From positions 1-38,036 of the IMG/VR virus record IMGVR_UViG_3300021387_000308: a stretch of DNA of 38,036 bases. The stretch is one strand, 5' to 3'. This DNA is from a virus (Duplodnaviria; Heunggongvirae; Uroviricota; Caudoviricetes). Position 1 is the first letter of the stretch. Each line of letters opens with the position of its first letter. The notes below the pieces were generated by a model. It saw only the letters and a program-made list of their open reading frames with translations, was not told where the DNA came from and did no database searches. The translations under genes were made by a program, and so were the position numbers. Of this stretch, positions 8,338-11,459 are shown piece after piece.

Positions 8338-8721
8338 TTGGGATATGTTTTTTATAATCCAAATCCCGCCGGGAAATTTGTTGGTGATTGTGTAATTAGA
8401 GCAATGTGTAAATTATTAGATAAAAGTTGGGAAAATGTTTACACTGAAATTGCATTAACTGGATTTCAACTTTGTGATATGCCATCTTCTAATTACGTGT
8501 GGGGTTAGTATTTAAAATCAAATGGATTTGTTAGGAAAAATCTTCCGAACACATGCCCTGATTGTTATTCATTATAGAATTTTTGTAATGATTATCCAAA
8601 AGGATCATATGCTGTAGCTACCGGAACACATGTTTGTGCTGTATAGGATGGGACGGTTTATGATTCGTGGGATAGTCGAGACGAGACAGTAATTTATTAC
8701 TGGGAAAAGGAGGAAAAATAA
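8338..8721 (+). CDS. Papain-fold (C39-like) cysteine peptidase-like protein, 127 aa; cassette gene 1
   Basis: RBS GGAGAT, TTG start. Reads GYVFYNPNPAGKFVGDCVIRA...GTHVCAVQDGTVYDSWD, giving a candidate Cys/His/Asp triad. Three TAGs; TAA 8719-8721. Confidence 0.7.
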
Positions 8722-8722
8722 T

Positions 8723-9334
8723 ATGGATAATTATAATGGTTTTCCAACAACATATCAGCCTATGGTTTAGCCTAATATGTATTATCAATAGGCATAGCCA
8801 ACAACAGCTGTACCAATGTATCAGCCAAGGAGCTGGCAATAGGTTTATTAGCCCCAAAATACAAATGTGAGTTATTAGACTCAAGTTCCTCAGATTAATA
8901 ATTCTATGGTATGGGTACAAGGTGAAGCGGGAGCTAAAGCTTATGGTATTCCAAATAATACTACTCTCCCACTTTGGGATAGTGAATCTCAAACTATTTA
9001 TATTAAAACTGTGGATCAAAATGGTAAACCAAGTATGACTATTTTGGATTATGTGGAAAGAAATTCAGATAATCAATCTGTTATGGATAATAAACAGGCG
9101 GTTTAGATTGAATATGCAACTAAAGAACAAGTTGATACTTTAAATGGATAGTTTAATTCTATTAATAAAAAACTTGATTCTATGAATCAATATGTTACTA
9201 AGGATCAGCTTAAAGATTTGACTTCCCATATCAATGATTTAAGTGGACAAATAGAAGATATTGAAGATAGAATTACTAGTTTTGGTAAACCATAGTCTAA
9301 CAATAATACAAATAATAGAAGGGGGAACAAATAA
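8723..9334 (+). CDS. Hypothetical protein with Q/P/Y/N-rich N-terminus, a conserved middle domain and a coiled coil, 203 aa; cassette gene 2
   Basis: ATG 8723 follows AAGGAGG. Nine TAGs. Core WVQGEAGAKAYGIPNNTTLPLWDSESQTIYIKTVD. TAA 9332-9334 overlaps the next ATG. Confidence 0.8.
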
Positions 9335-9630
9335 TGGGTAATCCATTATTTAATAGATTTGGTGGTATTAATAATTCAAATCCAAATCGAAATTATAACA
9401 ACAATAATATTTTTCATTAGCTTGCTCAGATTAAGCAAAATCCTGGCGCTATATTAGATATACTGTTTTAGAACGGCAAAATTAATCAACAACAATATAA
9501 TGATTTATGGCAATTCAGGAATAATCCAGAAATGATTGGAAGATATTTAATTAATAATGGTAAAGCCAATGAAATAAATTATGCCGAACAAATGGCAAAC
9601 TAGTCTGGTAATAATGGAAATTATAGGTGA
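9334..9630 (+). CDS. Small N/Q-rich hypothetical protein, 98 aa; cassette gene 3
   Basis: TAATG coupling to the previous gene. Reads MGNPLFNRFGG...QIKQNPGAILDILFQNGKINQQQY; three TAGs; TGA 9628-9630. Confidence 0.75.
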
Positions 9631-9745
9631 TAATTAAAATACAGCGTATAATATATTTAATTCTTCATATCAGGAATAAAAGGAATATATTTTGATGGTA
9701 GTATAACTTGATAATTATTTTTTATTCTAATGGAGGTATTATATT

Positions 9746-10516
9746 ATGATGAATACAGATGGACTTAGTGCAGCGGATCTTGCAGCAGTAGTTGGGAATA
9801 ATAATGATGGATTTGGCAATGGTAATGGCGCTTGGTGGCTTTTAGTTCTTCTTCTTTTCGCCAATAATGGTTGGGGAAATGGATGGAACGGAAATGGTGC
9901 TTCTGGTGCTATGATGGGATATGCTACATAGCAGGATGTTCAGAGTGGTTTTGACCAGGCAGCCATTATGAGTGGAATTAATGGTATTAACAGCACTCTG
10001 AGTAATGGATTTGCAAATGCTGAAATTTCTCGTGCAGCTACACTTGCTAATCTTACAAATCAGATGAATACTATTGCTATGAATCAGTAGCAATGCTGCT
10101 GCAACAATTAGTTATAGGTAGCCAACCTTGGAGCGTAGATTGCTTCCGAAGCATGTGCTGATCGCCAATCGGTAAATGATGGTGTTCGTGATCTTATGGC
10201 TAATAATACTGCAAATACTCAGGCTCTTCTTAATACTATTAATAGTGGTATTCAGTCTATTCAAGACAAATTATGTCAGCAGGAAATTGATGCTCTTAAA
10301 ACTCAGAATGCAAATCTTTAGACATAGCTTAATCTTGCGAACCTTCGTGGTTCTCAGGATGCACAGACTGCTGCTATTTTAGCTAACAATGATGCTTAGA
10401 CAGCTGCTCTCGAAAGATACCTTGCTCCAACACCAATTCCAGCATACGTTGTGCAGAACCCTAATTGCTGTGCGCAGAATTTTGGTTATGGTTGCGGTTG
10501 TGGCGTAAATGGTTGA
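9746..10516 (+). CDS. Gly/Asn-rich, hydrophobic-N-terminus, Cys-cluster coiled-coil protein, 256 aa; cassette gene 4
   Basis: RBS GGAGGT. GAWWLLVLLLF is flanked by GN-rich segments; QQCCC at about 10088-10102; C-terminal PIPAYVVQNPNCC...GYGCGCG. TAG read-through to TGA 10514-10516. Confidence 0.8.
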
Positions 10517-10531
10517 TTGGAGGTGGCGTAT

Positions 10532-11005
10532 ATGGCCGAATATTCAGCAAATGCTGTTTAGACAGTAAATCCTGGCGAAACTGTAATTTTTACAGAAGCA
10601 CCAGTTCCATGCAATCGTGGTTTAGTACGCCATCGTGATGGTACTGGTAATTTTCTTTTAAGCGGTTTTGTTCCAAATAGTTTTAGTAGAGGATGTTGCT
10701 GTAATAGAAAAAACAGCGCTAATTATTTAATTGATTTTGGTGCGAATATAGCTATCCCAACTGGTGGTACTCCGGGAGAAATTTCTATCGCAATAACAAT
10801 TGATGGTTCTACGATACCCTCTTCCACAATGATTGCAACTCCAGCGGTAATCGAAGAATATTTTAATATATCTCGTGCAATTAACGCACAGATTTGGCGT
10901 GGATGTTGTGAGACAATCGCTGTAAGAAATACAAGTGATTAGCCAATTTTAGTTTAGAATGCGAATATTATTTTTTCGCGTCCTGACTTGATAGTTACAC
11001 GGTAA
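10532..11005 (+). CDS. Beta-sandwich protein resembling BclA C-terminal/C1q-TNF-like domains, 157 aa; cassette gene 5
   Basis: RBS GGAGGTGG, ATG 10532. Alternating beta-strand pattern (AVQTVNPGETVIFT, NYLIDFGANIAIP, ETIAVRNTS, VQNANIIF) with CCC and CC motifs. Three TAGs; TAA 11003-11005. The fold call is by eye. Confidence 0.65.
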
Positions 11006-11012
11006 GGAGGAG

Positions 11013-11459
11013 ATGAAAATGCAAGAATTTGATAATATTAAAGATATGGTTTATTGTGAACTTGATGAAATTTCTCATTAGGGTAAACTTGATATGAATA
11101 CTGTAAAAGTTCTTGGCGAACTTGTAGATATTCTTAAAGATATTGGCAGTGTAGAAATGTTTGAAGAAGGTATCGATATTCAGGGCGAAGAATATCCAAC
11201 ACCAAATGGATATAGCCGTAACGGTGGTTATTCTTAGAGGAGAATGCCAATTTATTATGATAATGGCGGCAACAGCTACGGTAATAGTTATAATAATTAT
11301 CGTGGTGGAAATGGTGGTTATTCGCGTAGAAGTCGTGGTTATAGCTATGATGATAGTAAGGTTCATATGATAGAAAAGCTTAACCATCTTATGATGGAAG
11401 CTTCAGATCAACAGGACAAAGAAGCAATTCAGAGACTTATTGATTAGATGCAGAAGTAA
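11013..11459 (+). CDS. Hypothetical protein with a helical N-terminus and a G/Y/S/R-rich low-complexity region, about 148 aa (alternative start 11019); cassette gene 6
   Basis: RBS AAGGAGG. Reads ELVDILKDI...GYSRNGGYSQRRMP...GNSYGNSYNNYRGGNGGYSRRSRGYSY. Three TAGs; TAA 11457-11459. Confidence 0.75.

Follow-up and report, generated by a model that had tools for sequence, protein, structure and literature searches.

A conserved six-gene cassette with a predicted papain-fold enzyme and a predicted TNF/C1q-type jelly roll in phages of gut and rumen bacteria

What does a closely packed row of six co-oriented genes, closed by a terminator-like hairpin, contribute to the phage that carries it? The question is raised by positions 8338-11459 of a stretch of 38,036 nucleotides (the window, by which the whole analysed stretch is meant) from the Caudoviricetes virus record IMGVR_UViG_3300021387_000308 of IMG/VR. 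A first-pass annotation made from the letters alone had seen in these genes, here called g1 to g6, a self-assembling, disulfide-cross-linked fibre or coat that is matured by its own peptidase and that could decorate virions or host spores. The comparison of related loci shows that the six genes are a real co-inherited cassette, far beyond chance, and we tentatively read them as a self-contained, portable late accessory operon of Bacillota phages that builds an assembly of its own and is not part of a particular virion. From the earlier interpretation the parts list, the unity of the cassette and the lack of an assigned function have stood, while the spore link and the decoration of virions have lost ground.

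Searches with g5 in viral contigs and bacterial genomes yielded 54 loci, and all-against-all clustering of their open reading frames (ORFs) returned the six cassette families as the six largest clusters. Hidden Markov models (HMMs) of the six families, built from their own alignments and applied to the 46 loci with enough flank, found g1 to g6 all present and in the same order in 41 of them, by which the grouping first drawn from a single sequence is confirmed through co-occurrence and fixed order. Only five of the related loci are TAG-recoded, so that possession of the cassette does not characterise recoded phages. Its carriers are gut and rumen phages and prophages of Lachnospiraceae, Oscillospiraceae, Christensenellaceae, Selenomonadaceae and others, including the cultured Butyrivibrio phage Ceridwen (on B. 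fibrisolvens) and prophages of Anaerovibrio lipolyticus DSM 3074 (L033) and Butyrivibrio sp. INlla21 (L039); among plasmids there was a single match, an 861-kb Vescimonas replicon. The families are large, with more than 5,700 clusters at 90% identity for g5 and more than 6,000 for g4, all of them unnamed.

The surroundings of the cassette differ from phage to phage. In the window and in L003, L004 and L009 it lies between head-like and tail genes, and in this group integrase, metzincin and RusA genes are found upstream and tail genes together with a tape-measure-like ORF of 7,650 aa downstream. In L010-L012, L015 and L026 it stands upstream of HNH, TerL and portal genes, a prohead protease-like gene also being located downstream in this lineage, and in L001 and L027-L030 it follows directly after endolysin and small holin-like genes. 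Lysis adjacency is a minority arrangement, with an endolysin gene at most two genes upstream in about 5-7 of some 40 loci; in the carrier genome itself the endolysin is situated at about 73.3-75.0 kb of the record and thus about 62 kb from the cassette. The cassette is always co-oriented with the late genes, and as its flanks vary between phages the unit acts like a movable accessory operon within the late region.

Recognition of the genes depends on the genetic code. Under the standard code (table 11) the region falls into short broken ORFs without intact cassette genes. If TAG is taken as a residue, coding on the + strand of the window rises from 4,363 to 12,602 aa (frames of at least 100 aa), and with TAG as Gln six co-oriented ORFs appear at coordinates matching those of the first-pass annotation. 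In-frame TAG occurs in 20 of the 22 window genes, 15 of which end in TAA, 7 in TGA and none in TAG. That the carrier phage reads TAG as Gln (code 15) is well supported because no gene ends in TAG and because the TAG codons of g5 coincide with alignment columns in which homologs using the standard code have Gln always or almost always (Q10 and Q142 of A1). No tRNA, and hence no TAG suppressor, was found by ARAGORN in the window or in the source record, a single 102,036-bp virus sequence of 33% GC that may be incomplete; either the suppressor tRNA is encoded elsewhere or the carrier genome is incomplete. While nearly all neighbours carry TAG, the integrase gene (5896-6870) and a 188-aa ORF after the cassette (11562-12128) are TAG-free, consistent with their translation before the code switch. 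Recoded codons have been reported to mark late or lytic genes (10.1101/2021.08.26.457843). As all six genes contain TAG and the integrase does not, the cassette belongs by this published logic to the late lytic programme and not to lysogenic conversion, and expression late in infection is what the codon pattern predicts.

Table 1. Positions of the cassette genes, of associated elements in the window and of the DUF7211 proteins in related loci (locus handle before the colon).
Feature	Position	Strand	Description
g1	8338..8721	+	127 aa, TTG start, 3 TAG; predicted papain-fold (clan CA) Cys-His-Asp enzyme
g2	8723..9334	+	203 aa, 9 TAG; Q/N/P/Y-rich N-terminus, central domain, basic helical C-terminus
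g3	9334..9630	+	98 aa, 3 TAG; small helical N/Q-rich protein
Intergenic gap	9631..9745	+	115 nt; 9632-9667 = 5' arm of long-range inverted repeat
g4	9746..10516	+	256 aa, 8 TAG; leader-like N-terminal peptide, hydrophobic core, helical region, Pro/Cys tail
g5	10532..11005	+	157 aa, 3 TAG; predicted stand-alone TNF/C1q jelly roll; ORF opens 10517
g6	11013..11459	+	148 aa, 3 TAG; R/G/Y/S low-complexity core between N- and C-terminal helices
3' arm of inverted repeat bracketing g4-g6	11485..11520	+	
Terminator-like hairpin and T-run	11532..11561 (hairpin 11532-11555)	+	10 pairs; closes cassette
DUF7211 proteins	L026:2169-6863; L015:3600-4157; L012:918-1406 and 4231-4914		

The layout (Table 1) bears out the original description of six packed co-oriented genes with one gap and a closing terminator, the junctions consisting of a 1-nt spacer (g1/g2), a 1-nt overlap (g2/g3), the 115-nt gap (g3/g4) and spacers of 15 nt (g4/g5) and 7 nt (g5/g6), and the hairpin being the sole intrinsic terminator-like site within 7800-12300. 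Translation of g5 almost certainly starts at ATG 10532 and not at TTG 10517, because homologs begin with MAEYS and GGAGG lies 8 nt upstream. The unusual composition noticed at first sight, with Q/N-rich proteins, a G/Y/S/R protein and CCC clusters, is equally true in numbers against the genome background: Q+N makes up 24-36% of g2, g3 and g4 versus 9.5 +/- 2.9% (maximum 17%) in other ORFs of the genome, a 40-aa window of g6 reaches 72% G/Y/S/R where the 95th percentile of the background is 47%, and the CCC motif is confined to g4 and g5.

The arms of an inverted repeat of 36 nt with 78% complementarity are located just past the stop codons of g3 and g6, before the terminator. Its helix score was reached by none of 300 shuffles, and in L003, the closest relative, a helix built in part from other bases occupies the equivalent position (p~0.02). 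A strict helix test across the loci was significant in the window and L003 only and negative in more distant loci; a long-range RNA duplex as a general cassette feature was discarded, with RNAduplex z-scores near zero in most loci. The repeat may be a lineage-specific stem for mRNA processing or stabilisation; the window has no match in Rfam.

The cassette touches known biology through two folds only, those of g1 and g5. The protein g1 matches phrog_3754 (E 1e-28), and N7, N9, D17, C18, R21, H98 and D109 are invariant in 20 homologs, with C18, H98 and D109 as the triad. The AlphaFold2 (AF2) model, with a predicted local distance difference test (pLDDT) value of 93.9, has a papain fold, for which VIA-align ranked C39 domains at the top (PCAT1 7s5j, Z 7.0; LahT 6mpz, 6.9; ComA 5xe8, 6.4); the top 50 are almost all clan CA, and Josephin, staphopain and YopQ-like folds are effectively tied with C39. 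Predicted fold, invariant triad and C39 as nearest neighbour agree with the papain-like Cys/His/Asp enzyme initially recognised. No Pfam match for g1 was obtained at E<=1, Peptidase_C39 (PF03412) included, and no PDB sequence match. A transglutaminase or deamidase reading is merely less favoured, with no transglutaminase in the VIA top 50 and OspI at only Z 5.0.

The g1 family comprises 4,159 representatives at 50% identity, nearly all of about 125 aa and mostly stand-alone, and g1-like proteins may be a widespread family of early phage cysteine proteases. In large Bacillus siphoviruses they are encoded singly in the early region, Tsamsa gp15 (L057; about 125 aa) lying among early genes beside an ocr-like gene and a kinase gene, and the g1-like protein GBK2_35 (L058) among early genes near RecE/RecT. 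Natural g1-g2 fusions make up two representative clusters (P0298 and P0352); a Pfam scan of the g1 fusion partners gave no domain, and besides the g1-g2 fusions there were only two forms with an N-terminal hydrophobic segment. In the cassette and its flanks there is no ABC transporter, and g1 is free-standing.

The second recognisable fold is that of g5, a member of phrog_20016. Its alignment-based AF2 model (pLDDT 88.9) is a ten-strand TNF/C1q jelly roll, and Foldseek against the PDB retrieved the C-terminal domain of F-BclA (E 5e-8) besides EDA, ExsFA, BxpB, BclA and C1q, all at probability 1.00; with F-BclA, ExsFA/BxpB and BclA as the nearest solved folds, the C1q/BclA-like domain of the first reading holds as a predicted structure. 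The searches gave no Pfam family at E<=1 (including BclA_C and C1q) and no PDB sequence match at E<=10. In BFVD the fold forms the knob in collagen-like proteins, in fibritin whiskers and in tail fibres, and is also met as stand-alone proteins of about 135-142 aa in gut siphoviruses. Homologs of g5 are all free-standing and of about 155 aa; one 380-aa protein, probably an artefact, was the only longer form met, so that no longer or fused form is credible. The Cys-Cys pair of g5 is invariant, and with a mean column identity of 64%, compared with 50% for g1, 42% for g4 and 25-28% for g2, g3 and g6, it is the most conserved protein of the cassette. In ExsF, which has the same fold, the trimer docks the leader peptide of F-Anchor in an inter-subunit cleft (structure 9H3D; PMC12357932).

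The remaining architecture is most elaborate in g4, which matches phrog_16490. A double-glycine-like N-terminal peptide (LSAADLAAVVGN) is followed by a G/N-rich region and a Trp-flanked hydrophobic core, then by a Pro-free amphipathic region with CCC and EACADR and by a Pro-rich PAYVVQNP tail ending in CC...GCGCG. In the homolog alignment the CCC is not universal, EACADR has an invariant E, C and R, and the tail ends in Cys/Gly. Of 118 close homologs, 113 have a hydrophobic core of exactly 11 residues, flanked by Trp at either end. Proteases of the C39 type go with the double-glycine leader consensus LSXXELXXIXGG (PMC1538908), and the N-terminus of type A in g4, [LMF]S(A/P)AD-x-AAV-x-GN, agrees with this consensus everywhere except at the last position, with Asn at -1. 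An N-terminal peptide of this kind is borne by half of the g4 homologs. A relaxed leader pattern is present in 11 of 28 g4 proteins, in none of 618 other ORFs and in 0.14% of shuffled g4 N-termini. Pro-rich hydrophobic peptides can be found at both ends of g4, and some N-termini and the tail P-x-P-V-P-A-Y-V-V recall the exosporium leader. The type of the C-terminal tail changes twice on the g4 core tree, four times on the g5 tree and seven times on the g1 tree; that it tracks g5 better than g1 is explained equally well by physical linkage.

Individual g4 genes show further peculiarities. In L032 (4330-5900) the gene is split at the CCC by an insert of about 1.5 kb that carries the gene of a homing endonuclease of the GIY-YIG type, beyond which the g4 sequence continues in the downstream exon with ...ATEACADR...; the insert is probably a group I intron. 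Intron-like inserts are typical of conserved, expressed genes. In L003 (7230-7400) an in-frame TGA stands at a Trp conserved in all homologs (NNG-W-GNG) and could be a sequencing error, a pseudogene mark or local TGA read-through. In the recoded metagenome-assembled genome (MAG) locus L051 (4669-5853) one frame of 394 aa matches the profiles of g3 and g4 alike, which is either a true g3-g4 fusion or a real TAG stop read through by calling TAG as Gln.

For the other members the description stays at the level of features. The protein g2 matches phrog_21718 and has a small conserved central domain, WVQGE...YIK..D..G.P, and in g6 two conserved helices flank the R/G/Y/S core. In line with the remark made at the outset that no assigned function was known, no named family, structure, paper or function was found in family libraries or literature for the six proteins or the unit. 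Matches in PHROGs were to families of unknown function only, Pfam gave none for g1, g3 and g5 (E<=1) and weak coiled-coil noise only for g2, g4 and g6, PDB sequence and profile searches with all six proteins gave nothing significant, and in the ESM Atlas the g4 homolog P0129 and the TAG-free g2 core met unnamed viral clusters only. Equally, literature searches on DUF7211, on functional data for Ceridwen and on phage BclA/BxpB-like proteins brought up nothing relevant.

How might these parts work together in the late accessory operon that we favour? The protein g4 would form a helical rod or bundle that bears its N-terminal peptide, its Trp-flanked hydrophobic segment and its Pro/Cys tail, features that can be seen in the sequence while the fold is predicted from them. 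The jelly roll g5 would assemble into a trimer that caps g4 or docks a g4 peptide, as ExsF does with the leaders of BclA and F-Anchor. The enzyme g1, with its predicted fold and visible triad, would mature a protein of the cassette, the candidates being the N-terminal peptide of g4 or g2, and g2, g3 and g6 may serve as low-complexity helpers, scaffolds or matrix components. None of the six proteins has a signal peptide, so that assembly should start in the cytoplasm, and the complex would act on the host membrane from inside or only once lysis has released it. As the carriers have unrelated virions and g5 shows the highest conservation, the complex more probably recognises itself or something conserved in the host; a variable receptor or one given capsid is the less likely target.

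The integrity of the cassette, its late expression, the folds of g1 and g5, the leader specific to g4, the g1-g2 fusions, the conservation of g5 and the docking precedent of ExsF together carry this proposal to a little below even confidence; the targeting of g4 by the GIY-YIG insert in L032 and the size of the g4 and g5 families count in its favour as well. Several observations weigh against it. Homologs of g1 occur without g2-g6 in Tsamsa-like Bacillus phages, Geobacillus phage GBK2 and Lak megaphages, and Dulem virus 39 retains g4 and g5 alone. For g2, g3, g4 and g6 the family, PDB and Atlas searches found no relatives of known function or fold. The hydrophobic core of g4, with 11-14 residues, is short for a membrane span. 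Its following region, being Pro-free and amphipathic at a period of 3.6 residues, can be taken as helical, but a continuous heptad signal at 3.5 was not found; of the Cys-cluster coiled coil announced for g4, the Cys clusters and the helical region thus remain and the coiled coil is unproven. About 45% of g4 homologs have instead a proline-type N-terminus (MVMPVAPMY, TMLVGPTSAPY), and whichever tree is taken, that of g1, of g5 or of the g4 core, the N-terminal type changes 7-8 times. Co-evolution of the peptide with g1 or g5 was rejected on these counts; as g1 does not track the switching, the two g4 peptides appear as interchangeable modules with no sign of co-evolution with g1. The proposed removal of the g4 leader by the peptidase accordingly keeps one leg, the leader-like peptide specific to g4, and is weakened by the other N-terminal type, by the lack of tracking and by g1 occurring alone, and cleavage of g4 by g1 remains an analogy.

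A more specific elaboration can be drawn, in which the cassette would be a self-assembling, Cys-rich lattice or matrix of stalks and knobs, corresponding in phages to the exosporium nap, produced in the reducing cytoplasm of strict anaerobes, released at lysis and hardened by oxygen through disulfides, to protect, cluster or stick progeny virions on their way between animals, with g1 as maturation protease and the Q/N-rich and RGG-type proteins as matrix or condensate. We regard this full picture as improbable; disulfide cross-linking of the cassette proteins is only what we infer.

Among the alternatives, decoration of the virion fares best, and even so we consider it unlikely. An accessory fibre would consist of a g4 trimer as shaft and g5 as distal knob on the head, neck or tail of the progeny, and after leaving the anaerobic host it might gain stability from disulfides. 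Where the g5 fold turns up in viral predicted structures, it typically forms the distal knob, be it of collagen-like fibres, fibritin whiskers or tail fibres, and in the window and its relatives the cassette is placed between head-like and tail genes and late by its TAG codons. It moves, however, among phages with unrelated structural modules and into sites as varied as those after lysis genes and before the terminase gene, no recognisable virion-attachment domain is present, and g5 is the most conserved member instead of a fast-evolving knob and is never fused to a shaft. The virion decoration of the first-pass annotation is hence unproven and somewhat disfavoured by this hopping between unrelated virion modules and by the conservation of g5.

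Still less credit is given to the possibility that the six genes are not one system, g1 being an independent host-directed or anti-defence cysteine protease that merely travels with g2-g6 or with a g4-g5 module. The largely stand-alone family of 4,159 representatives, the early-gene homologs in Tsamsa (with the ocr-like gene and kinase) and GBK2 (with RecE/RecT), the g4 and g5 of Dulem virus 39 without g1 and the missing co-variation of g1 with the g4 N-terminus would all fit such a passenger. Nevertheless, g1 is the first cassette gene in every complete locus, abuts or overlaps g2 and has been joined to it in fusion proteins.

A membrane module associated with lysis, in which a membrane-anchored g4 and its partners would act on the cytoplasmic membrane when infection ends, as a holin/endolysin accessory, a membrane disruptor or a spanin-like device in the diderm Selenomonadaceae, is improbable. 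The position directly after endolysin and holin-like genes in L001 and L027-L030, part of the about 5-7 lysis-adjacent loci among some 40, brought it into consideration, as did the diderm Selenomonadaceae among the hosts and the N-proximal hydrophobic segment, helical region and Pro/Cys tail of g4, which loosely recall the design of spanins. Most loci are nevertheless not adjacent to lysis genes, the endolysin of the carrier genome being about 62 kb away, and most hosts are monoderm; the cassette contains no lipobox protein, the partners are without signal peptide, and six genes exceed the needs of known lysis accessories.

Equally, g4 might be the precursor of a bacteriocin-like or membrane-active protein that is cut by the C39-like g1 and freed by lysis instead of by an ABC exporter, with g5 as targeting or protective partner. 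The match of the type-A N-terminus to LSXXELXXIXGG with a C39-like enzyme in the same operon (PMC1538908) and the Gly/Trp-rich hydrophobic segment after the putative cut site inspire this scenario, which is very improbable in view of a g4 protein of about 250 aa that is strongly conserved over its whole length, of the roughly 45% of homologs that lack this leader type without a matching change in g1, of Asn at -1 in place of Gly, Ala or Ser, and of a cassette without transporter or immunity-like membrane protein.

The link to spore-forming hosts was part of the first-pass annotation. SpoIVA is present in two Clostridia MAG hosts of the cassette, and the genomes of the isolates Anaerovibrio lipolyticus DSM 3074 and Butyrivibrio sp. 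INlla21 do not have it; as these SpoIVA-less isolates carry the cassette in their prophages, a spore-specific role is refuted and the cassette extends beyond spore formers, and the B. fibrisolvens phage Ceridwen likewise argues against the link. Deposition of the proteins on host spores as a phage-encoded BclA/ExsF-like nap, evoked by exosporium and endospore-appendage proteins of Bacillus as the best solved matches of g5, by g4 N-termini such as TMLVGPTSAPY that recall the exosporium leader and by the hosts with SpoIVA, is therefore given next to no chance as a general role, the more so as Ceridwen is lytic, as TAG recoding ties the cassette of the carrier to late lytic expression, which kills the cell, and as g5 has no Pfam BclA_C match.

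Two neighbouring observations deserve mention. On the + strand of the window (12832-35784), between tail-chaperone-like genes and the gene of a minor tail protein, extends an ORF of 7,650 codons with 153 in-frame TAG, whose product resembles a tape-measure protein of extraordinary length. In one HK97-like lineage, the surroundings of the cassette encode proteins that share the DUF7211 N-terminal motif of about 25 residues (ELYHHGVKGMKWGVR) and differ in their C-terminal domains, one of which is a papain-fold glutamine-deamidase toxin domain; in L026 an insertion of four of them separates g2 from g3. The motif has the look of a common tag by which polymorphic, effector-like proteins would be targeted or packaged. 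As cassette members the DUF7211 proteins were rejected, being confined to one phage lineage plus the L026 insertion.

As the six-gene unit stays intact while hopping between unrelated phages, it must confer a general advantage in late infection. Once worked out, its function would annotate tens of thousands of genes now called hypothetical and could reveal a new step in the life cycle of phages of anaerobes, be it particle protection, clustering, membrane remodelling or a new protease-substrate pair, and cultured carriers exist with Ceridwen on Butyrivibrio fibrisolvens DSM 3071 and the prophages of the two isolates. New in the present analysis are the test of leader specificity together with the failed co-variation with g1, the lone g1, the g1-g2 fusions, the SpoIVA test, the statistic of the 11-residue core and the tally of genomic contexts.

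Comparison with known systems delimits the late accessory operon from several sides. With code-15 recoded gut phages the carrier has in common the in-frame TAG that never serves as a stop and the TAG-free integrase gene; recoding, however, belongs to this carrier only, most copies of the cassette residing in standard-code phages. Two-component spanins of the Rz/Rz1 type resemble g4 in the N-proximal hydrophobic anchor, the helical region and the Pro-rich Cys tail and resemble the cassette in being late and sometimes beside endolysin and holin genes, but differ in that most cassette hosts are monoderm, a lipoprotein partner is lacking, six genes are involved, the endolysin is about 62 kb distant and the hydrophobic core of g4 measures 11-14 residues only. 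C39 peptidases such as PCAT1, ComA and LahT share with g1 the papain fold, a size of about 125-150 aa, a Cys near position 18 and His/Asp around 98-112, and a protein in the operon of g1, g4, has an N-terminus fitting LSXXELXXIXGG. In contrast to them, g1 is free-standing with no Pfam PF03412 match and no ABC exporter, its Z-scores are tied with those of other folds, the putative leader has Asn at -1, half of the putative g4 substrates have another N-terminus, and the g1 family extends to phages without any g4.

Closest by structure are the exosporium and appendage proteins of the Bacillus cereus group (9h38, 9h3d, 7r1m, 8d02, 1wck), with which g5 shares the fold (E 5e-8 to 2e-5, template-modelling (TM) score 0.6-0.75) and in which a partner with short, hydrophobic, Pro-containing terminal peptides and Cys clusters finds its parallel in g4. 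Here g5 has no Pfam membership and is never fused to a collagen-like stalk, its partner g4 is predicted to be helical and not collagenous, an ExsY/CotY-like basal-layer protein is missing from the cassette, and the whole is encoded by phages, late in lytic growth, and occurs in hosts without SpoIVA. The trimeric viral fibres with a C1q/TNF knob, among them collagen-like proteins of phages and giant viruses, fibritin neck whiskers and some tail fibres, have the knob fold (BFVD) and late expression in common with g5. In the cassette, however, this fold is a separate protein of 157 aa and not the C-terminal domain of a fibre, and it is the most conserved part of a unit in which its companions include a protease and three low-complexity proteins.

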